From Nostoc sp. KVJ20 (lineage in GTDB: Bacteria > Cyanobacteriota > Cyanobacteriia > Cyanobacteriales > Nostocaceae): DNA of 30,338 nucleotides. The notes under the pieces are model-generated. The model saw only the letters and a list, made by a program, of their open reading frames with translations, did no database searches and was not told the DNA's origin. The position numbers and the translations under genes are program-made. The stretch spans positions 1-30,338 of the forward strand of contig NZ_KV757576.1 of NCBI RefSeq assembly GCF_001712795.1, given 5' to 3'. This document shows positions 4,618 through 25,753 of the stretch, one piece after another (the stretch's first letter is position 1; every line of letters begins with the position of its first letter).

Positions 4618-4859
4618 ACAAAATTGTGCCGCAATAGAACTTTTGGATTTTTTTAGGATAGTAGTATTATTAAATTGTATATACAACTTTATTTTTCCCA
4701 AGTATTGAGTAGCTAACGATAGAATCGTGCTTTGTCGGTGATAAATTATACAGCTTTTTTTATTTGCCTACACGTTTAAACGCTACAACAAGCTAATGTG
4801 CAATTACTCATGATTTTTTGAGTACTACCTCAAAAAAACCTTTATTTAAAAGTTGCGCG

Positions 4860-5435
4860 ATGACACAAACAACTACAGAGCGTCTATACTCTTTTGAAGA
4901 ATATCTCGCTTATAACGATGGTACTGATAGCCGTTATGAATTGGTGGATGGGAAACTAGAACGCATGAATCCACCAACTTTTAGACATTTACTAATTTCT
5001 GACTTTATTCAGGATAACTTTAAGGCAGAAATCAATCGCTTGAGTTTACCTTGGCTATGCTTTAGAGAGGCAGGGGTAAGAACGGGATGGCGGAAGTCAA
5101 GATTGCCTGATGTTTATGTTGTCACAGCTGAACAGGTAATGGAATTCCTTGATGAGTCTGCTGTTTGTCAGTCTGCGCCGATATTAGTAGTGGAAGTTGT
5201 CAGCCCTGATTCAATAAAACGCGACTATCGATATAAACGTTCTGAATATGCAGCGTTAGAGATTTCTGAATATTGGATTGTAGATCCAATAGAGTCAAAA
5301 ATTACGATTTTATTGTTGTCAGAAGGATTGTACGAGGAAAAAGAGTTTAGCGGGAGTCAGCAACTTGTGTCTGCAACTTTCCCGGAAATTGCACTTACAG
5401 TTGAACAAGTATTGTCTGCGGGTAATGTTGGTTAA
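4860..5435 (+). CDS. Uma2-family (DUF820) putative restriction-type endonuclease
   Basis: YSFEEYLAYNDGTDSRYELVDGKLERM..., PDVYVV, ILVVEVVSPDS..D...K...YA...ISEYWIVDP match the Uma2 family pattern. I prefer the ATG at 4860 (MTQTTTERLY) over the ORF-track TTG at 4818. Confidence 0.8.
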   Translation: MTQTTTERLYSFEEYLAYNDGTDSRYELVDGKLERMNPPTFRHLLISDFIQDNFKAEINRLSLPWLCFREAGVRTGWRKSRLPDVYVVTAEQVMEFLDESAVCQSAPILVVEVVSPDSIKRDYRYKRSEYAALEISEYWIVDPIESKITILLLSEGLYEEKEFSGSQQLVSATFPEIALTVEQVLSAGNVG

Positions 5436-5708
5436 AAAATAGACCATCCCTTCTGCTAGTTATCACAAGACTGTAAAACTCTGGGCTTACTTAAATAACC
5501 TAGAGGATTTAATTGGATAAAGTTGTGCTAAGTTACGTAGTTATTTGTAGTCACCCAATGTAAGCGATCGCACAGGAAATACATTCAAAAATCTGGAACT
5601 GTTTAGCGATCGCACTCATTTGACTTTGAAGGCTAGCCTTGGTCATGATGTACTTGTGTCAATTTCCCAGTGCTAGCCATTAGTGGGCGATAGCTGTATA
5701 CAATAACT

Positions 5709-6626
5709 CTATTCTTTTTGATGATGAAACCGAATTCCTAAAAAGATGTCGTAAACAAACTCAAAAAAGTCCTTTTTCTGCAACAATCCTGAAGTTTGAT
5801 AACATCCTTTTTCATCTAAGAGTGGCTTCATGACATAGTATGCAGGTTGGTAATTATACCAAGGAATAGAAGGCCACAAATGATGAATTAAGTGGTAATT
5901 CTGTCCCATAATTAGGATATTGAGAACTTGGTTTGGGTAGACGCGAGCATTTTTCCAGCGATCGCGCTCCGCAAAAGGACGATGAGGCAAATAGTCAAAA
6001 AATAATCCCAGTGCTATCCCTACCACAAAAGCTGGTATAAACCAAAAATTCAGAATGTAACCCAAAAAGTTGTACTGCACTGAGATATAAACAATTACAC
6101 CGACAATTAAGCGGCTGATGAACCATTCCCATAGCTCATATTTACGCCACAGTCGCCGTTGAAAGAAAAATACCTCATGGTACAAAAAACGCACTGCAAT
6201 CAACCATAACGGGCCACCAGTAGAGACATAATGATCTGGGTCGTCTTTAGGATGGTTGACATGTCCATGATGCTGTAAATGCACCCGCGTAAATACTGGA
6301 AAAGCAAAAGCTAGCATCAACGCACTGCCATGCCCTAACATCGCATTCATCACCCGGTTGCGATGGGCTGATTGGTGACAGGCATCATGAATTACTGTTC
6401 CAGCACAATGCAAGGCAAGGGTGTTAACGCTAAAGCACAGCCAGTGCGGCCATTCCCAAAGCCAGTAACCAAAGTTAGATAACACCAGCATTGCTACAGC
6501 TACCAAAAACAGCAGTAGCGTGGGATTAAAATCACCAGGAGGCGCTAAAAATTCCTTGGGTGGGATTGTCAGTGGCTTTTGTGCCTCCGATGTGATCATC
6601 TCTAACATTGACTCCTTCTTAATCAA
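5709..6626 (-). CDS. crtR: Membrane di-iron hydroxylase of the fatty-acid-desaturase superfamily, most like cyanobacterial beta-carotene hydroxylase CrtR
   Basis: Three histidine boxes are present (HDACHQSAH, HLQHHGH, HLIHHLWPSIPWYNY) along with several hydrophobic helices. The HDACH-type first box and the size (305 aa) fit CrtR rather than an acyl-lipid desaturase. Confidence 0.6.
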   Translation of the reverse strand: MIKKESMLEMITSEAQKPLTIPPKEFLAPPGDFNPTLLLFLVAVAMLVLSNFGYWLWEWPHWLCFSVNTLALHCAGTVIHDACHQSAHRNRVMNAMLGHGSALMLAFAFPVFTRVHLQHHGHVNHPKDDPDHYVSTGGPLWLIAVRFLYHEVFFFQRRLWRKYELWEWFISRLIVGVIVYISVQYNFLGYILNFWFIPAFVVGIALGLFFDYLPHRPFAERDRWKNARVYPNQVLNILIMGQNYHLIHHLWPSIPWYNYQPAYYVMKPLLDEKGCYQTSGLLQKKDFFEFVYDIFLGIRFHHQKE

Positions 6627-19010: not shown

Positions 19011-19230
19011 AAAAAAATCTGTTTTATGTTTGGTTGTGGGATTTTTCGATGAAGGATGAGTAGTGAGTTATTCATTAGGAGTTAATTAGTTATTATCCTT
19101 TTTTCCCACTCTCTACTCCCCTGTGCCCACTGTCTACTCTCCATTGATGAATATACCGCTTTCTGTGTCCCTAAATAACATGAAAACTCGTAACAATAAA
19201 ATTCATCAGCCATCAATTCCACAAATTCCT

Positions 19231-20613
19231 ATGACAGTAACTTACAATTTGCCTGATGGGCCTCAAATGCCGCGCTGGCTAAGGATGATCAAGTTTATTA
19301 GTCAGCCAGTGAAATATATAGATGATTTTGCCAAAATCTATGGTGACACTTTCACAATTAGGAGTAGTCGGTCTGATAATCATATTGTGTACTTTAGTCA
19401 ACCCCAAGCCCTTGAGCAGATTTTTACTGCTGATTCCAGCCATTTTGAGGTTGGCAGAGGGAACATAGGGCTAAAATTTTTGCTTGGCGATCGCTCCTTT
19501 ATGTTATCAGATGGCGATCGCCACCAGCGCCAACGGCAACTATTAGCTCCTCCCTTTCATGGCGAAAGGATGCGGGCTTACGGCGAGGAAATTCGGGAAA
19601 TCACCCGACAGGTGACTAATGAATGGCAAATTGGCAAGCCTTTTAAGATCCGTGAGTCGATGCAAGAAATCACCTTGCGTGTTATTCTGCGGGTTGTATT
19701 TGGTTTGAATGATGGAGAAGTGTTTGAGGAACTGAGGCGATCGCTAAGTGACTTACTAGACTTCATGACTTCGCCCGTAATGTCCAGCACCTTGTTTTTC
19801 CGGTTCATGCAAAAAGATTTCGGTGCGTGGAGTCCGTGGGGTTGGATTCTCCAACAACGGCAAAAAATTGATCAACTGATTTACGCTTTGCTTCAAGAAC
19901 GTCGGGCTGAATCTGATCAAAATCGCCAAGATATCCTCAGTTTGATGATGGCTGCTCGTTATGACGATGGTCAAGGGATGTCAGATGAAGAATTACACGA
20001 CGAGTTGATGACGTTGCTAGTTGCAGGACATGAAACTACCGCTTCTGCATTGACATGGGCTTTTTACTGGATTGACCATTTACCGGAGGTGCGGGAGAAA
20101 TTGCTACAAGAACTTAACACCCTTGGAGTTAACCCGGATTTAAGTAGTGTAGCTAAATTGCCTTATCTGACAGCAGTTTGCCAAGAAACATTGCGAATCT
20201 ACCCAATTGCCATGAATGCTTTCTGGCGGGTTGTGAAGATTCCAATTACCATTATGGGCTACGAACTGCGAGAAGGGACAGCAATAATTCCCAGTATTTA
20301 TTTAGCCCATCATCGAGAAGAAGTTTACCCACAATCAAAGCAATTTAAACCAGAACGCTTTTTAGAAAGACAATATTCACCTTATGAATATTTACCTTTT
20401 GGTGGCGGTAATCGTCGCTGTATTGGGATGGCATTTGCTCAGTATGAAATGAAAATCGTCTTGGCAACTGTTCTGTCAGAATTTCAAGTATCGCTAGTGA
20501 ATAAACGTCCTATCCGTCCTGTGCGCCGTGGTTTAACTTTAGCCGCACCCGCCGGAATGCGGATGATTGCAACACCTCAAGTCAAGCGTGCGAATACGCC
20601 AGCATTGGTGTAA
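19231..20613 (+). CDS. Cytochrome P450 (CYP110-like)
   Basis: Heme-binding loop FGGGNRRCIGMAFAQYEM, I-helix LVAGHETTA, and an ExxR motif (ETLR). I prefer the start at ATG 19231 (MTVTYNLPDGPQMP). The ORF-track GTG at 19123 lies inside a heptamer repeat block, and ATG 19180 is another option. Confidence 0.85.
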   Translation: MTVTYNLPDGPQMPRWLRMIKFISQPVKYIDDFAKIYGDTFTIRSSRSDNHIVYFSQPQALEQIFTADSSHFEVGRGNIGLKFLLGDRSFMLSDGDRHQRQRQLLAPPFHGERMRAYGEEIREITRQVTNEWQIGKPFKIRESMQEITLRVILRVVFGLNDGEVFEELRRSLSDLLDFMTSPVMSSTLFFRFMQKDFGAWSPWGWILQQRQKIDQLIYALLQERRAESDQNRQDILSLMMAARYDDGQGMSDEELHDELMTLLVAGHETTASALTWAFYWIDHLPEVREKLLQELNTLGVNPDLSSVAKLPYLTAVCQETLRIYPIAMNAFWRVVKIPITIMGYELREGTAIIPSIYLAHHREEVYPQSKQFKPERFLERQYSPYEYLPFGGGNRRCIGMAFAQYEMKIVLATVLSEFQVSLVNKRPIRPVRRGLTLAAPAGMRMIATPQVKRANTPALV

Positions 20614-21308: not shown

Positions 21309-21825
21309 AAAACCTCACGGAAGTTTAGGAACCCTCTGGCTTTCAACCAATGAGGGAAAACGACGCGGGTACTTTAGCACCCTTCACATTTATTAGTTTT
21401 CCCCAATTAGAGTATTTTCTCCCGTGTGAATACCGTTTTTATAAAAGCGGGGTGAGGTATGGTGGCGTTGTCAAGGTAAACTAAACATTACGAGTTTTGC
21501 TCTCGGAGTTTGGATTCTCAAGATACAACTGTTTGGGAAATGAAAGGGACTAAAGAAGTACCCCAAGAATTCAACTACCATATCAGTAGTAAGTTAAATG
21601 GAAAGGGAAGTGGTTTACCTTGGCATCTACATAATATTGTTTACCATTTTCTCCCAGGGATTTACTATTAATTCGAGGTAGCAGTTGGGTATCAAATTGC
21701 ATCAGTTTTTGTAAAAGTCAACTTAACGTTAAAAACCGTGTCTATACAGACATAATTAGGAAATGTGGCAATCAGGCTAGGCTAGAATAGCTTTCAGTGG
21801 AATTTCGGTTGTTATTCATAAAATT

Positions 21826-22260
21826 ATGGAACCTGTAACACTAACGGCTGTTGCAACTGCGATCGCTACTATAGTTTTAACTAAAGCTCTAGAAAAAACT
21901 GGCGAAAAGCTTGGGGAAGCAGGGTTAGAAGCAAGCAGTAAATTAATCGCACAGCTACGTAATAAAAATAAGTTGCCCTTATTAGCAGAGGCGACACCAG
22001 AAAATACACAGCAGCCGTTAGATTATGGTAAAGCGCTACTAGAGTTGAAAGCCGCAGCAGACACAGATACCGAAATTGCTCAATCAGTGCGGGACGTGGA
22101 AGCCGCAGTAAACGCCGATCCTCAAATAGCGTCAAAAGTCCAAGCTTTAGCAAATGGGCTGAACTCACAACCAGCAACCATCATTAATTCTACAAAGTTA
22201 GCTGACTCTATTAAAAACGTCTTTCAAGGAAATATTTTCACTGGTACTAATATTTTCTGA
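21826..22260 (+). CDS. Small helical protein with N-terminal hydrophobic helix and G/N/T-rich tail. It looks like the detached N-terminal effector module of the downstream STAND NTPase.
   Basis: 144 aa: MEPVTLTAVATAIATIVLTKAL (hydrophobic/amphipathic helix), then an Ala/Glu/Lys-rich segment predicted to be helical, then the tail ...IKNVFQGNIFTGTNIF. It is in the same frame as ORF 22321-24648 and is separated from it only by the TGA at 22258-22260. Confidence 0.5.
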   Translation: MEPVTLTAVATAIATIVLTKALEKTGEKLGEAGLEASSKLIAQLRNKNKLPLLAEATPENTQQPLDYGKALLELKAAADTDTEIAQSVRDVEAAVNADPQIASKVQALANGLNSQPATIINSTKLADSIKNVFQGNIFTGTNIF

Positions 22261-22320
22261 CTGCATTCGCCTGGAGGAGAACAGGTAAAGTCAAATCTCG
22301 CTACCGAAATACCGCAAAAT

Positions 22321-24648
22321 TTGCCCTTAAGTGGGGTGGTGGAGTTTGTTGGACGTGAAGTGGAATTGCAAAATCTCCATCAGCTTTTGCAGGAAAATGA
22401 ACAAGTGGCTATAGCTGCTGTTGCTGGCATGGGTGGAGTTGGTAAAACTGAACTTGCCCTACAATATGCCAGAAATCACCGCGAAACTTACAAGGGTGGA
22501 ATTTGCTGGTTGCTGGCAAAAGTTAGTGATGTGGGCATTCAAGTTGTACAGTTTGCCAGAACTCATCTTGATTTAAAAATACCAGATAATTTAACAGAAG
22601 ATCCTAACCAAAAATTACTCGCGCAAGTCCAATATTGCTTTCGGCATTGGCCTGGAGAGGTTGATGTTCTGCTGGTGCTGGATGATGTTGTGGAATACAA
22701 GGAAGTTAAGCCCTACTTACACTCGCTATCTTCTCGGTTTAAAGTGCTGATGACCACAAGGGAAAAATTACAGCCGCCGATAATGCGATTAGACTTGGGT
22801 TTGCTCAAACCGTTGGCGGCAATGAACCTATTAAAATCGCTGGTGGGTAGAGAACGATTGCGACGTGAACCTTGGATTGCTAGAAGACTTTGTAAGCATC
22901 TCGGTTATTTGCCTTTGGGTTTGGAATTAGTCGGGAGATATCTGGTACTTGATGAGGATTTATCTCTAGCAGAAATCTTGCAGCAATTAAAAGATGAGGG
23001 TCTGACGAATGAAGCAATAGACGAAGCTCCACAAGAAATGACCGCTAAACTAGGTGTAGCTGCTGCTTTTGAGTTAAGTTGGCGGCGTTTGCAAAAAAAC
23101 GCCCAAGTTTTAGGTTGTTTTTTGAGCTTATTTGCCTTGGCTCCGATTTCTTGGAAATTGGTGGAAGGCAATGAAGGTAAAGAGCAAAAAAAAGCTAGAC
23201 GCGATTTGTTAAAGTTCTATTTACTCCAACGCAAAGGTGAGGAAACATACCAACTTCATCCACTGCTAAGAGAGTTTTTCCAAAATAAGCTTACAGGTTT
23301 AGAACAGGCAGAGGAATTAAAGCGATCGCTTTGTGGGGTAATAGTAGCAGTTGCAAAGGAGATTCCTGAAACACCCACTCTTGAGCAAATCAACGCCGTC
23401 TCCTTTGCCATACCTCATATAGCTGAAGTAGCGAATAATCTCATTGAATATATCAGCGATGATGATTTGATTTGGGCATTTGTTGGCAATGCTCGATTTT
23501 ACGAAGGCCAGGGATTGTATGATAAAGCAGTATCTTGGCGTGAGCAGCGTCTAGAAATAACTAAACAACGTTTGGGAGAAGAACATCCAGATGTCGCCAC
23601 TAGCCTCAACGACCTAGCGCAACTCTACCGTTCCCAAGGTAGATACAGCGAAGCCGAATCTGTTCACGTCCAAGCTTTGGCACTTAGGCGCAACCTGCTG
23701 GGAGATGAACATCCAGATGTCGCTACTAGCCTCAACAACCTTGCGGTACTTTATCGTTTACAAGGCAGATACAGGGAAGCTGAACCCCTTTACATCCAAG
23801 CTTTGGCACTTAGGCGCAACCTGCTGGGAGATGAACATCCAGATGTCGCTACTAGCCTCAACAACCTTGCGGTACTCTATAGTTTCCAAAGCAGATACAG
23901 CGAAGCCGAACCTGTTCACATCCAAGCTTTGGCACTCAGGCGTCAACTGCTGGGAGATGAACATCCAGATGTCGCAGAAAGCCTCCACAACTTAGCGGGA
24001 CTCTACAACTACCAAGGCAGATACAGCGAAGCCGAACCCTTTGCTATCCAAGCTTTGGCACTCTTTCGTAAGTTGCTGGGAAAAGAACATCCATTTGTCG
24101 CACAAAGCCTCAACAACCTAGCGTTAATTTACAGCTTCCAAAGCAAATACAGCGAAGCCGAACCCCTTTTGATCGAAGCTTTAGAACTCACGCGCAAGTT
24201 GTTGGGAGATGAACATCCAGATGTCGCACAAACCCTCAACAACCTCGCATTACTCTACAACTACCAAGGCAGATACAGCGAAGCCGAACCCCTTTACATC
24301 CAAGCTTTGGAACTCAAACGCAAGCTGCTGGGAGATGAACATCAAGATGTCGCCACTAACCTCAATAACCTAGCGTATCTCTACCGTGACCAAGGCAGAT
24401 ACAGCGAAGCAGAAACCCTTTTCATCAAAGCTTTGGCACTCAGGCGCAAGCTGCTGGGAGATGAACATGAAAATGTCGCACACAGCTTCAAGAACCTAGC
24501 GGCACTCTACTGTGACCAAGGCAGATACAGCGAAGCGGAACTTTTGTACATGCAAGCATTAGATATTTTTGAGCGACGGTTAGGTGCAAATCATCCTAAT
24601 ACTGCTGCTGTACGTCAAAGTTTAGAAGATTTGCGCGATTTTCTTTAA
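22321..24648 (+). CDS. NB-ARC (STAND) NTPase with C-terminal array of 42-aa TPR units (NLR-like)
   Basis: P-loop GMGGVGKTELA, Walker B LLVLDDV, the MTTRE (TTR) motif, and a GLPL-like LGYLPLGLELVG. Eight 42-aa units of the type LLGDEHPDVATSLNNLAxLYxxQGRYSEAEPLxIQALALRRK follow. The only candidate start is TTG 22321, and the frame is open upstream to 22261. Confidence 0.85.
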   Translation: MPLSGVVEFVGREVELQNLHQLLQENEQVAIAAVAGMGGVGKTELALQYARNHRETYKGGICWLLAKVSDVGIQVVQFARTHLDLKIPDNLTEDPNQKLLAQVQYCFRHWPGEVDVLLVLDDVVEYKEVKPYLHSLSSRFKVLMTTREKLQPPIMRLDLGLLKPLAAMNLLKSLVGRERLRREPWIARRLCKHLGYLPLGLELVGRYLVLDEDLSLAEILQQLKDEGLTNEAIDEAPQEMTAKLGVAAAFELSWRRLQKNAQVLGCFLSLFALAPISWKLVEGNEGKEQKKARRDLLKFYLLQRKGEETYQLHPLLREFFQNKLTGLEQAEELKRSLCGVIVAVAKEIPETPTLEQINAVSFAIPHIAEVANNLIEYISDDDLIWAFVGNARFYEGQGLYDKAVSWREQRLEITKQRLGEEHPDVATSLNDLAQLYRSQGRYSEAESVHVQALALRRNLLGDEHPDVATSLNNLAVLYRLQGRYREAEPLYIQALALRRNLLGDEHPDVATSLNNLAVLYSFQSRYSEAEPVHIQALALRRQLLGDEHPDVAESLHNLAGLYNYQGRYSEAEPFAIQALALFRKLLGKEHPFVAQSLNNLALIYSFQSKYSEAEPLLIEALELTRKLLGDEHPDVAQTLNNLALLYNYQGRYSEAEPLYIQALELKRKLLGDEHQDVATNLNNLAYLYRDQGRYSEAETLFIKALALRRKLLGDEHENVAHSFKNLAALYCDQGRYSEAELLYMQALDIFERRLGANHPNTAAVRQSLEDLRDFL

Positions 24649-25019: not shown

Positions 25020-25409
25020 TTATTCAAGTAAATTAAATCCCTGTTCGCTTCTTAACTTTCTGTCAAAAGTTACTGTTGAACTACAACTATTATGTTGAGC
25101 AATCGCGCCGATTAAATAGTCGGATAAATCTGCTTTTCCCTGATGAAATCGCTGTAATGCTTGATAAACTAAAGAGCGATTTTCTAACTCAAACACTGAA
25201 CATTGCAACATTAACTCTATAGTGTTGCTAATTTCTTCCTTACTAAATTCATAGGGCTTTCCCCGTAAAACCCAAACCAACTCACAAAGAACTATATTTG
25301 CTACAAAACATTGCTCTCCTGCTTCGATAATTTCAGCAGCTTGTTTCCACTGCTTTTCATCATCTTTTGTGATGTAGCGCACTAAAATATTTGTATCAAC
25401 TCCAATCAC
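25020..25409 (-). CDS. vapC: VapC toxin (PIN-domain ribonuclease)
   Basis: MIGVDTNILVRY... (the first acidic motif), 129 aa, GTG start. It overlaps the upstream antitoxin gene by 14 nt. Confidence 0.85.
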   Translation of the reverse strand: MIGVDTNILVRYITKDDEKQWKQAAEIIEAGEQCFVANIVLCELVWVLRGKPYEFSKEEISNTIELMLQCSVFELENRSLVYQALQRFHQGKADLSDYLIGAIAQHNSCSSTVTFDRKLRSEQGFNLLE

Positions 25410-25641
25410 TTGCGCCTTCTTGGATTGCTGCTTCCATTTCTTCTAAAGTTGCACTTTTCATCGCCGGACGATGTAGAATGCCGGACAGAGTTTGAACAGG
25501 AACATTGAGTGGAATTAGTTTAACTGTCCCATTTTCATCAATGACAAAATCAACCTTACTACCTATATCAAGATTAAGATAATCCCTAATTTCTTTAGGA
25601 ATAATTACTTCTCCTTTGGTGGTGATGGTGACGCTAGCCAT
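25396..25641 (-). CDS. vapB: VapB antitoxin, AbrB/MazE/SpoVT-type DNA-binding domain
   Basis: MASVTITTKGEVIIPKEIRDYLNLDIGSKVDFVIDENGTVKL is a swapped-hairpin AbrB-type fold signature. ATG 25641 is preferred, and ATG 25656 is also possible. Confidence 0.8.
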   Translation of the reverse strand: MASVTITTKGEVIIPKEIRDYLNLDIGSKVDFVIDENGTVKLIPLNVPVQTLSGILHRPAMKSATLEEMEAAIQEGASDWS

Positions 25642-25753
25642 TACGTTTCCTGACATAAATTATTTACCTAAATATAACGTTTCTTGGCAGATCAACACAG
25701 CGAGCGGTATAAATAGAGTCTTTTCTCTGCGTACCTCTGCGCTTCCCTCCGCG

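Follow-up and report, generated by a model that had tools for sequence, protein, structure and literature searches.

An in-frame UGA and an RNA hairpin conserved between Bell-like effectors and NLR-like proteins of filamentous cyanobacteria: a candidate programmed read-through signal

Introduction

Filamentous bacteria encode Bell/BASS-NLR gene pairs that act by amyloid signalling (Dyrka et al. 2020, bioRxiv 10.1101/2020.01.06.895854), to which the Bab/Agp antiphage system is related (bioRxiv 10.1101/2024.11.07.622273). The Bell effectors described by Dyrka et al. 2020 have about 120-140 aa, of which about 100 form a helical domain resembling a five-helix bundle, and they start with a hydrophobic helix whose residue 2 or 3 is negatively charged; the reference points for the family are an HMM seeded on ONI86675.1 in the same study and the crystal structure of Bab. 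The published Bell-BASS/BASS-NLR systems have two separate copies of the motif, one at the C-terminus of the effector and another at the N-terminus of the NLR, a collinear NB-ARC or NACHT protein encoded close by and bearing TPR, WD, or HEAT repeats, and stop codons and read-through are never mentioned in that work (Dyrka et al. 2020). Other NLRs are all-in-one proteins, where a Bell, HeLo, TIR, or lipase domain is fused to the NOD.

Programmed read-through in chromosomal bacterial genes is, to our knowledge, rare, and hairpin-stimulated read-through is not established on bacterial ribosomes; we also know of no earlier read-through case in a prokaryotic immune or cell-death system. The recoding site of prfB, which encodes RF2, reads CUU UGA C. 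The context UGA-C is reportedly a weak one for RF2, as Poole and co-workers are said to have found in 1995. Viral type II read-through signals consist of UGA-CUA or UGA-CGG with an RNA structure from position +12, as in alphavirus nsP3/nsP4 and coltivirus, and MuLV gag-pol has an 8-nt spacer followed by a structure (PMC13517186). In phage Q-beta, ribosomes occasionally pass the UGA between coat and A1, so that a small amount of a longer protein is made (PMC13517186).

Here, we describe a locus of Nostoc sp. KVJ20 in which a small effector-like ORF and an NLR-like gene share one frame interrupted by one UGA. The window analysed is a contiguous stretch of 30,338 nucleotides (contig NZ_KV757576.1), and its junction was compared with those of homologous loci.

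Results

Two genes in one frame

The ORFs at 21826-22260 and 22321-24648 have a common reading frame, and the TGA at 22258-22260 is the sole stop between them, with a C at 22261 (Table 1). None of the next 20 codons (22261-22320, LHSPGGEQVKSNLATEIPQN) is a stop, nor is there an in-frame ATG, GTG, or TTG among them; the earliest in-frame ATG after the UGA, at 22429, falls within the P-loop GMGGVGKT, and the annotated start, TTG 22321, is codon 21. An earlier note on this DNA had described the two ORFs joined by a single UGA-C, the run of sense codons devoid of ATG and GTG, and the first ATG inside the P-loop, all of which we confirmed in the window, where TTG is also missing from the run. It had also taken TTG 22321 for the sole candidate start, but GTG 22336 and GTG 22339 are in frame as well. 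Pfam finds NB-ARC (7.3e-15, residues 35-249), TPR_10 (7e-115), and TPR_12 (1e-114) in the 795-aa translation after the stop, placing an NB-ARC and TPR protein directly downstream of the effector ORF on the same strand. The body of this NLR also scores 303.3 bits against NCBIfam NF040586 (FxSxx-COOH system TPR protein; cut-off 300), which most likely reflects a generic NB-ARC-TPR resemblance. In such a system, a precursor peptide and a radical SAM maturase would be encoded nearby; the window ORFs that were scanned include no radical SAM gene, and the C-terminus of the small ORF has no FxSxx ending.

Table 1. Features of the effector-NLR junction and of the flanking genes in the window.
Feature	Position	Strand	Description
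Small ORF (144 aa, ATG start)	21826..22257	+	Bell-like predicted membrane-targeting helical effector module; N-terminal hydrophobic helix with Glu2 encoded at 21826-21900
Tail motif, effector C-terminus (residues 129-144)	22210..22257	+	IKNVFQGNIFTGTNIF; N/Q/G-rich, predicted disordered, BASS7-like
In-frame UGA, then C and Leu codon	22258..22260	+	Leu codon is CUG in the window; conserved among junctions
RNA cassette	22258..22293	+	Outer helix candidate, inner hairpin, and purine-rich loop
Outer helix candidate	22258-22262 with 22289-22293	+	UGACU with AGUCA; 97.4% paired
Inner hairpin	22269-22273 with 22282-22286	+	GCCUG with CAGGU; covariation
Purine-rich loop	22274-22281	+	GAGGAGAA
Linker after the stop (codons 1-25)	22261..22335	+	LHSPGGEQVKSNLATEIPQNLPLSG; open in frame, without conserved start
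GTG-GTG (codons 26-27)	22336..22341	+	Just before the FVGRE onset of the NB-ARC domain
NLR-like STAND NTPase body	22261..24648	+	Pfam NB-ARC and TPR; stop codon at 24646-24648
NB-ARC	~22363-23007	+	P-loop GMGGVGKT at 22426-22449
TPR_10/TPR_12 repeats, about nine	~23460-24645	+	Pfam

The effector ORF and its tail

The 144-aa ORF is a member of a family of free-standing proteins, typically of 139-152 aa: it has 220 homologues, and the best 120 of the 220 are all short (~87-199 aa). The N-terminus (M-E-P-V-T-L-T-A-V-A-T-A-I-A-T-I-V-L-T-K) is a hydrophobic helix with an acidic residue at position 2, a glutamate present in 25 of 30 aligned members, while the remaining five begin with MVTV; M1, L6, A12, I13, T15, T19, K20, E23, G26, and E27 are invariant in the N-terminal part of alignment A1. 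The AF2 model, of moderate confidence (pLDDT 61.8), is all-helical, with 6-7 helices across residues 6-134 (6-25, 31-46, 67-80, 82-97, 99-113, 122-134), and leaves the tail disordered (pLDDT <50 at residues 134-144). The tail motif is kept in alignment A1, and other N/Q/G-rich tails take its place on the same domain in relatives. The [IF]QGNxF half of the window tail matches BASS7 pairs in Table S2 of Dyrka et al. 2020, and both BASS5 and BASS7 pairs of that table match tails within the effector family; RCJ37669.1, from a Nostoc punctiforme relative, is absent from the supplementary files of the same study.

These features and the BASS-tailed relatives, rather than a profile or a confident fold match, are the grounds on which the ORF resembles the Bell effector family and its tail resembles an amyloid-type, BASS-like signalling motif. 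The earlier note had placed the effector in no characterised family. This holds in so far as the 144-aa part matches no Pfam, NCBIfam, or PADLOC model, among which there is no Bell model, and fails in so far as the protein fits the published Bell description and has relatives carrying BASS5 and BASS7. The structure prediction that the note had proposed for residues 1-144 returned the expected helices; neither Foldseek of the model against PDB nor a profile search of the sequences in PDB gave a match for the effector. We infer that the protein is a putative membrane-toxic cell-death module, and that its tail putatively forms amyloid.

The locus thus resembles the Bell/BASS pairs in its helical effector of ~140 aa, which begins with a hydrophobic helix and is acidic at position 2, in the variable C-terminal N/Q/G-rich motif of ~20 aa, in the collinear adjoining NB-ARC/NACHT repeat protein, and in its restriction to filamentous cyanobacteria. 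Unlike in those pairs, the NLR of the window has neither its own motif copy nor a conserved start, and it is in frame with the effector via a conserved UGA and a hairpin.

Conservation of the junction

We gathered 84 unique homologous junctions, 83 of them with an intact small ORF, which share descent and recombination, so that the counts over the 83 are not of independent events: the stop is TGA in 82, spanning Nostocales and Microcoleus, and it is followed by C in 80 and by T in 3. Leu is encoded directly after the stop in 80 (CTA 40, CTG 35, CTC 2, TTG 2, TTA 1), and UGA is followed by CUA or CUG at 75 of the 83 junctions. At 72 junctions, the frame of the small ORF runs on into an NB-ARC or NACHT protein for 200 codons or more without a further stop. 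As a background, the ordinary long ORFs of the same genomes (n=223) end in TAA (107), TGA (65), or TAG (51); TGA-C ends 6 of the 223, with C after TGA in 6 of 64 cases. The window contains a single instance of a 34-nt pattern of the cassette, where 100 shuffles give an expectation of 0.00, and there are several cassette copies per genome.

No homologue has a sense codon in place of the UGA. Long proteins make up 3 of the 150 best cluster representatives, and none of them consists of the tail, a sense codon, and the LxSP linker. The arrangement is present in more than 70 independent genome assemblies and in about 84 metagenomic contigs. As far as sequence comparison can tell, the succession of effector, UGA, and NLR is conserved, not accidental, at well over a hundred cyanobacterial loci. 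Aligning orthologues, as the earlier note had suggested, therefore revealed a conserved UGA and never a sense codon; together with the free-standing nature of the effector family, this refutes the first of its three options, a very recent nonsense split.

Starts and coding constraint downstream of the UGA

The linker has 24-28 codons among relatives, and all its length differences are multiples of 3; the frame is therefore maintained. Over the first 100 codons after the UGA, frame 0 contains 22 stops, against 427 in frame +1 and 520 in frame +2. No start codon of the downstream ORF is conserved among the loci. Codon 21, the annotated TTG of the window, is TTA in 24 of 40 relatives, TTG in 11, CTT in 3, CTC in 1, and CTG in 1, and the earliest in-frame ATG, GTG, or TTG lies anywhere from codon 1 to codon 138 across loci. 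The only semi-conserved potential independent start in the NB-ARC class is GTG-GTG, with GTG at codon 26 in 36/40 relatives and at codon 27 in 30/40; because most members have it, an independent start of a domain-less NLR is possible in this class. GTG-GTG is missing from the NACHT-class loci, whose first start is found at codons 24-138.

Codons 14-70 of the NACHT class have a pN/pS of ~0.5, similar to that of the NACHT body, and this includes six loci with the first possible start at codon 72-138. Judging from these substitutions, the stretch ahead of every possible start is evolving like protein-coding DNA. Directly after the UGA, pN/pS is 0.8-1.5 over the first 14-20 codons, so that the constraint demonstrable there is at the level of nucleotides and not of the protein.

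A covarying RNA hairpin

The inner 5-bp hairpin starts at +12 from the U of UGA, i.e., 8 nt past the UGA. Its helix is paired in 97.1% of the cells of the alignment, against at most 42% in slid registers, has compensatory changes (CG/UA, GC/CG) in three of the five pairs, and is recovered unprompted by RNAalifold; none of 500 shuffles reached its observed score. The outer helix is paired in 97.4%, but its changes are one-sided and none is compensatory. Folding of the window RNA forms both helices at an MFE of -11.2 kcal/mol, which, for this sequence taken alone, is no better than shuffles (z = -1.09). Synonymous divergence falls to 0.12-0.25 across the cassette, and the compensatory changes suggest that RNA structure is under selection rather than merely homogenised. 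A search of Rfam with the cassette gave no match.

Cassette-less relatives and module exchange

Two loci, L069 and L071, are the only ones devoid of the cassette and the only ones with a second motif copy; the base after their TGA is T. In L069, the NLR starts at an ATG of its own and carries a second copy of the tail motif (score 47, 11/22 identical), and L071 has a second copy with score 36. Second-motif scores are at most 30 throughout the loci with the UGA cassette, and a six-frame scan of the window for a second tail-motif copy found none (best score 25, which is noise). By these scores the cassette and the NLR-side motif copy are mutually exclusive, and L069 and L071 are, from their motifs, canonical BASS5-type pairs. 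The NLR of L069 is 97% identical to the post-UGA ORF of locus L067 from TPINWHEICRQ onward, a segment that in L067 lies upstream of the first possible start.

The same cassette follows Bell-like, TIR (TIR_2), and alpha/beta-hydrolase (DUF676/PGAP1-like) ORFs, and the bodies after it are NB-ARC-TPR, NACHT-HEAT, NB-ARC-phycobiliprotein, or TM-PPC proteins.

Discussion

The best explanation of these observations, to which we give a probability of roughly two in three, would be that the locus is one translational unit with a programmed leaky UGA. Most ribosomes would terminate at UGA 22258 and release the 144-aa effector with its C-terminal amyloid-type motif, while a fraction would pass the UGA, helped by the weak UGA-C(UR) context and by the hairpin at +12, and continue in frame into the NB-ARC/TPR protein. 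The result would be a low dose of an effector-motif-NLR fusion of ~940 aa (~105 kDa), with the junction peptide NVFQGNIFTGTNIF-X-LHSPGGEQVK. Upon sensing a trigger, the NLR would oligomerise, the clustered motifs of the fusion (and its effector domains) would nucleate, and the abundant free effector would be recruited via the identical motif, leading to membrane attack and cell death. As the fusion and the free effector share the motif, a single copy could serve both as the receptor-side and as the effector-side element. We infer that read-through may occur at UGA 22258. The comparative evidence favours the second option of the earlier note, a leaky UGA-C giving a rare fusion and an excess of effector, because the frame is conserved, the start is not, the hairpin covaries, and the cassette excludes a motif copy on the NLR. 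Its third option, an uncharacterised pair, is right for the junction and wrong for the partners: the Bell/BASS and NLR type has been described (Dyrka et al. 2020), whereas the UGA/hairpin junction has not, and we found no report of such an effector-NLR junction in the searchable literature.

The proposed signal shares with the viral type II signals the UGA followed by CUA/CUG, the 8-nt spacer, the structure from +12, and a proposed outcome in which a short product and its C-terminally extended form are made in a fixed proportion. It differs from them in residing on a bacterial chromosome, with 70S ribosomes and RF2, so that the resemblance would be convergent, and in having a minimal hairpin of 5 bp, or perhaps 10 bp if the outer helix is included, instead of an extended stem-loop or pseudoknot. 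By analogy, such a small hairpin would favour read-through by bacterial ribosomes. Q-beta is alike in that a bacterial UGA is passed at low frequency to yield a minor extension, but its context is UGA-A and it has no known structure; prfB shares the weak UGA-C, but undergoes a +1 frameshift; and neither Q-beta nor prfB represents a family of cellular immune genes. Read-through would yield a protein with the architecture of the all-in-one NLRs, and the same effector classes precede the cassette (Bell-like, TIR_2, DUF676/PGAP1-like hydrolase), except that, owing to the conserved stop, most of the product would be free effector. The Bell-like family itself is seldom fused directly (the 3 of 150 representatives), and these fusions lack both tail and linker.

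The most serious alternative, which we regard as unlikely, is that two polypeptides are made, the NLR starting independently at GTG 22336/22339, at TTG 22321, or at a near-cognate codon. The cassette would then be another RNA or DNA element, acting in mRNA processing or stability, in translational coupling or attenuation, or as a recombination junction that shuffles modules, and the open frame would be a by-product of fused ancestry. The semi-conserved GTG at codons 26-27 of the NB-ARC class, the window included, is in its favour, as are the nucleotide-level, not protein-level, constraint over the first 14-20 codons and the position of the cassette exactly at the boundary of module exchange, which fits a recombination hotspot. 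What it leaves unexplained is the preference for UGA-C, never UAA or UAG, and the restriction of indels to multiples of 3 with frame 0 alone free of stops; nor does it account for the coding constraint 50-120 codons upstream of any start in the NACHT class, for the presence of an ATG and a motif copy on the NLR in exactly the cassette-less loci, or for compensatory changes that indicate selection on RNA structure. Termination followed by reinitiation at the adjacent Leu codon (CUG, UUG, CUA) or nearby, giving a free effector and a motif-less NLR that begins in the LxSP linker, is more improbable still. Codon +1 is CUG or UUG, which are weak bacterial starts, at 37 of 83 junctions, and the purine-rich loop of the hairpin is Shine-Dalgarno-like; but the same codon is CUA at 40 of 83, and elsewhere CUC, CAG, or CCA, which are not known start codons, the loop lies downstream of the restart codon, and no Shine-Dalgarno-like sequence precedes the stop. 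Reinitiation would moreover need no conservation of frame, and the resulting NLR would have no coupling to the effector, unlike the motif-bearing two-gene relatives.

That the UGA encodes selenocysteine, the hairpin being a bacterial SECIS element, seems very improbable. The general shape is right, in that a stem-loop follows immediately, with the in-frame UGA at its base, but homologues have neither Cys nor another sense codon at this position, which is in a variable interdomain linker and not in a redox centre; the apical loop begins just 13 nt past the UGA and has no conserved G/U, Rfam gives no match, several copies exist per genome, and no Sec-decoding trait is on record for Cyanobacteria in the literature. 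A recent nonsense mutation, a pseudogene, or an assembly error in the Nostoc sp. KVJ20 genome, for which the bare look of one stop in an open frame is the only argument, is ruled out by the recurrence of the same arrangement in the independent assemblies and metagenomic contigs counted above.

Beyond this locus, we see an even balance for and against the broader proposal that filamentous cyanobacteria possess a portable bacterial read-through signal of ~36 nt, made of UGA-CUR, an 8-nt spacer, and a hairpin, which would be set between Bell-like, TIR, or lipase-like death-effector modules and many NLR bodies and would provide a hard-wired ratio of free effector to fusion with a single dual-role motif. 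Since competition with RF2 would set this ratio, the state of termination in the cell could tune the dosage of the immune receptor. If programmed read-through holds, it would 1) add to the few examples of programmed stop-codon read-through known from cellular genes of bacteria; 2) provide a compact and defined cis-signal, testable and reusable; 3) constitute a third architecture of NLR-effector coupling, between the all-in-one fusions and the two-gene amyloid pairs, where two motif copies need not co-evolve and the sensor-to-effector ratio is fixed; 4) lead to a corrected annotation for a large class of NLR genes in cyanobacteria; and 5) explain why motif-pair screens missed these loci, since the one of Dyrka et al. 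2020 requires the motif on both proteins and is blind to UGA-joined loci. At present, such NLRs carry arbitrary TTG/GTG starts and seemingly no N-terminal domains, and their effectors are listed as hypothetical orphan proteins.

Layout of the window locus

The 144-aa ORF and the NLR-like NB-ARC/TPR NTPase had been described in the earlier note as one reading frame with TGA-C as its sole break and 20 sense codons between the two ORFs, and the same was seen again in the window sequence (see table). The 20 codons directly after the TGA hold no in-frame ATG, GTG or TTG, and the frame then runs on to 24648. The companion claim that TTG 22321 is the only candidate start of the NLR had to be given up, since GTG 22336 and GTG 22339 are also in frame. 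Promoter-like and terminator-like sites showed no excess over shuffled sequence, with none between the two ORFs, and an Rfam scan of 21700-22500 returned a chance match to U8 snoRNA only (E = 4.3).

Features of the effector-UGA-NLR junction in the window
Feature	Position	Strand	Remark
Small ORF, ATG start, 144 codons	21826-22260	+	Ends in TGA, then C
Inner helix, 5 bp	22269-22273 with 22282-22286	+	Junction alignment A2, 68 unique junctions
Candidate outer helix, UGACU with AGUYA	22258-22262 with 22289-22293	+	Stop itself plus two bases
Post-stop frame, NB-ARC and about nine TPR_10/TPR_12 units	to 24648	+	Pfam on the translation

In NCBIfam, the window NLR (22261-24648) scores 303.3 bits with NF040586, whose cut-off is 300, and would be named 'FxSxx-COOH system tetratricopeptide repeat protein'. 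The window ORFs scanned include no radical SAM maturase and the small ORF lacks an FxSxx terminus; the label is probably over-specific. The near-identical TPR units produce repeated spurious ORFs in other frames (23705-24373, both strands, e.g. MNIQMS...STT at 23705-23995 and 24209-24373), and an antisense ORF of 98 aa (21881-22177) overlaps the small ORF; none of these shows signs of being a gene.

A family of short proteins with exchangeable tails

Searches with the 144-aa protein gave 220 homologues, of which the best 120 are without exception short proteins (139-152 aa where intact), and the genera among the homologues listed are Nostoc, Anabaena, Nodularia, Scytonema, Calothrix, Tolypothrix, Fischerella, Brasilonema, Aetokthonos and Microcoleus. 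In their alignment (A1), a conserved N-terminus, MEPVTLTAVATAIATIVLTKALEKTGEKLGE, precedes a helical body and a C-terminal tail that is conserved within classes and swapped between them (IKNVFQGNxFxGxxxF, EKGAMVAQQITIxEQHNTYN and others); the tail peptide of the window protein is SIKNVFQGNIFTGTNIF. A profile search of 1.84 billion cluster representatives yielded 405 relatives, and among the best 150 only three are long proteins, in none of which does a sense codon replace the stop and lead into the linker and an NLR. No family was assigned to the 144-aa protein by Pfam, PADLOC or NCBIfam searches, the sole Pfam match being a sub-threshold VRP1 (E = 0.02). Its AF2 model is of moderate confidence only (pLDDT 61.8) and had no Foldseek match in the PDB at an E of 0.001 or better, and a profile search of PDB sequences with the small ORF found nothing.

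The UGA junction is conserved

We assembled 80 genomic loci from different species, and three more from an exact protein look-up, and followed each small ORF to its stop and then on in the same frame, which gave 84 unique junctions; the loci share ancestry, and the junction counts are therefore counts of non-independent events. TGA ends 82 of the 83 intact small ORFs, and the base after the stop is C in 80 junctions and T in three. The next codon is CTA (40), CTG (35), CTC (2), TTG (2), TTA (1), CAG (2) or CCA (1). The background from ordinary long ORFs of the same DNA is quite different, with TAA, TGA and TAG ending 107, 65 and 51 of them and C following TGA in only 6 of 64 cases. The possibility, raised previously, that the window carries a recent nonsense split is contradicted by this conservation of TGA and by the short, free-standing nature of the family.

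The frame after the stop stays open for at least 200 codons in 72 junctions and runs off the contig end in one. Summed over 83 junctions, the first 100 post-stop codons contain 22 stops in frame 0, against 427 and 520 in frames +1 and +2. Nine TGA junctions close within 200 codons: two canonical two-gene loci (L069 and L071), one NLR split by a transposase (L013) and six apparently decayed copies with 55-146 open codons. At L013 (Nostoc sp. DedSLP03, 4786-5925), a transposase-like ORF of 379 aa interrupts the NB-ARC region in a locus that is 94% identical apart from this insertion; the NLR is split, and the small ORF and the cassette (the UGA-C, Leu codon and hairpin) are intact. The genome of [Scytonema hofmanni] UTEX 2349 (NZ_KK073768.1) has at least three cassette loci (L038, L052, L042), two of them separated by only about 5 kb (2398948-2407376 and 2403937-2412347 on the contig), which suggests tandem arrays of effector-UGA-NLR units. 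Nostoc sp. NIES-4103 (AP018288, 1.195 Mb) is another strain with the locus.

Coding constraint begins upstream of possible starts in the NACHT class

Past the stop, an in-frame ATG, GTG or TTG first appears anywhere from codon 1 to codon 138. The start chosen by the gene caller, TTG 22321 (codon 21), corresponds in 40 relatives of the NB-ARC class to TTA (24), TTG (11), CTT (3), CTC (1) or CTG (1). Between the stop and the FVGR motif lie 24, 25, 26, 27 or 28 codons, so that the length varies only by multiples of three nucleotides. For codons 14-70 of the post-UGA frame in the NACHT class, pN/pS is about 0.5, equal to the ratio further downstream (0.44); in the six loci of this class where a start first becomes possible at codon 72-138, it is 0.46. 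Judged by these sequences, the downstream ORF is without a start of its own, apart from the NB-ARC class, where a GTG-GTG at codons 26-27 is mostly conserved, window included.

The first 14-20 codons after the UGA have a character of their own: synonymous divergence is 0.12-0.25, against 0.44-0.60 in the flanks, and pN/pS reaches 0.8-1.5, with third positions almost frozen. We attribute these frozen synonymous sites to an RNA element, seen in alignment A2.

A small hairpin follows the stop

In the inner helix of this element, 97.1% of cells are paired, and sliding the register never gives more than 42%; compensatory changes are seen at three of the five pairs (CG/UA in 26 and in 12 sequences, GC/CG in three). 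The score of the helix was reached by 0 of 500 shuffles, and RNAalifold, unprompted, gives the same helix. It starts at +12 from the U of UGA, i.e., after an 8-nt spacer. The outer helix is compatible in 97.4% of cells, with variation that is one-sided only (G-C/G-U), and is thus consistent but unproven. The hairpin is small, and the window RNA by itself folds no better than shuffles (z = -1.09); the window has a single match to the cassette pattern, where chance would give 0.00.

Other roles for these nucleotides were considered and set aside. The purine-rich loop is unlikely to serve as a Shine-Dalgarno sequence for a downstream start, as the rightly spaced codon is GUA or ACA, neither of them a start, and GTG 26-27 is about 55 nt away. 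Editing of UGA to UGG (A-to-I, by TadA) was rejected as well, since this enzyme acts on UACG in a tRNA-like loop and the sequence here is UGACU.

Relation to Bell/BASS amyloid-signalling systems

Bell-domain proteins are described as short, with an N-terminal hydrophobic helix and an acidic residue at position 2-3, and their C-terminal motif (BASS1-10) recurs at the N-terminus of the adjacent NLR (Dyrka et al. 2020, bioRxiv 10.1101/2020.01.06.895854). Exactly this two-gene layout is found at L069 and L071, where the effector ends in KLAEKIGQVVVGGTGSIQNQSF-TGA-T and an ATG 18 nt later opens a NACHT-HEAT protein beginning MPEDTGKFAEKIGVVAHNSTVNIHNQNIG; effector end and NLR start match the BASS5 pairs of Dyrka et al. 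(Table S2). When each locus was scanned in six frames for another copy of its own tail, only L069 (score 47) and L071 (score 36) had one; the read-through-type loci all score 30 or less, the window 25.

The L069 NLR and the post-UGA frame of the read-through-type locus L067 are 97% identical from TPINWHEICRQ onward, a segment that in L067 lies upstream of any possible start, and homology between the two architectures starts precisely where the cassette ends on its 3' side (alignment A3). A degenerate cassette around the NLR ATG of L069 was considered and dropped, as A3 has no convincing homology upstream of ACTCCCATCAAC. BASS7 (NENWQGINF...ISGNTFNF) stands directly before the UGA cassette in L050 and L103, and the window tail shares with it the [IF]QGNxF half. 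Given the L069/L067 identity and the BASS tails, two layouts share their NLR bodies and published motifs, one with an ATG and a second motif copy, the other with UGA and hairpin, joined to the effector ORF.

By description and association, with no profile or fold match, we class the small ORF as Bell-like. The earlier view that it belongs to no characterised family thus holds as far as Pfam, PADLOC and NCBIfam models go, but it fits the Bell description and has relatives with BASS5 and BASS7 tails. The relative in Nostoc punctiforme NIES-2108 (RCJ37669.1) differs from the Bell example of Dyrka et al. (RCJ33357.1), and neither accession was found in the accessible portion of their supplementary text.

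The cassette precedes diverse bodies and follows diverse modules

The bodies after the cassette include NB-ARC-TPR, NACHT-HEAT-NCC-H, another NACHT type, NB-ARC-DUF7779-phycobiliprotein and, in Microcoleus, TM-PPC. Scanning metagenomes with the cassette nucleotide pattern, in which TGACT was fixed and which is thus uninformative on stop-codon identity, gave 93 matches: 66 after ORFs with the Bell-like profile and many different N/Q/G-rich tails, about ten after modules of other kinds, a TIR_2 domain and DUF676/PGAP1-like alpha/beta hydrolases among them, and about nine that are GC-rich chance hits. The ORFs that are not Bell-like, on metagenome contigs (L119:201-869, L095, L121, L134, L142 and L154), encode a TIR_2 protein or GxSxG alpha/beta hydrolases, each in frame into an NLR body.

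In Aetokthonos hydrillicola CCALA 1050 (L049:4436-6421), the post-UGA NLR-like protein consists of NB-ARC, DUF7779 and a phycobilisome-protein domain (PF00502, E = 1.9e-36), the latter in the C-terminal sensor position, where there are no repeats. In Microcoleus sp. ARI1-B5 (L004:5001-6389), a Bell-like ORF with 49% identity is closed by TGA-CTG, and its frame goes on for 319 codons that encode a transmembrane segment, a Pro/Thr-rich linker and a PPC domain, with no NTPase; the cassette hairpin is not evident there.

Proposed read-through and its rivals

The simplest reading of these sequences is programmed low-level read-through of UGA 22258. Termination would yield the free effector as the major product, and read-through would yield an effector-motif-NLR fusion as the minor one, with the junction peptide NVFQGNIFTGTNIF-X-LHSPGGEQVK (X being the residue at the UGA, for which Trp would be expected and Cys or Arg would be possible). 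A single motif would then couple free and fused forms, as two copies do in canonical pairs; amyloid formation by the tail and toxicity of the effector would be part of this scheme, as we infer. The classic type II viral read-through signal is UGA-CUA or UGA-CGG with a structure from +12 (PMC13517186), the distance at which the cassette hairpin also begins.

Selenocysteine insertion at the UGA is unlikely, because the trait is reported in the literature to be absent from Cyanobacteria, no homologue has Cys at this position and the site falls in a variable linker. Nor is reinitiation after termination likely, because codon +1 is mostly CUA and conservation of the frame would be needless. The main rival is a non-translational role of the cassette, with the NLR initiating independently, especially in the NB-ARC class, for which the GTG-GTG pair speaks; it leaves unexplained the UGA-C bias, the conserved frame and the mutual exclusivity of the two layouts.

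No earlier description of a stop codon or read-through at effector-NLR junctions was found in the searchable literature, including term searches of Dyrka 2020, Kaur 2020 and a 2026 STAND survey. On this basis, the effector/NLR amyloid-signalling system and the type of recoding are each known, and what is new is their combination and the host, neither described before.

Genomic surroundings

A cytochrome P450 gene lies upstream of the cassette in the window (19123-20613) and in Nostoc sp. DedQUE04 (L001:1190-2572). Between it and the small ORF are a hexapeptide acyltransferase in the former and HigB and RelB-like genes in the latter, so the immediate upstream flank is variable. About 370 nt downstream of the window NLR gene is a toxin-antitoxin pair (25020-25656, - strand), made up of two overlapping ORFs, one for a PIN-domain (VapC-like) toxin (25020-25409) and one for a MazE/AbrB-type antitoxin (25396-25656). 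Toxin-antitoxin genes (HigB, RelB-like, HicA and MazE among them) adjoin the cassette at other loci too.
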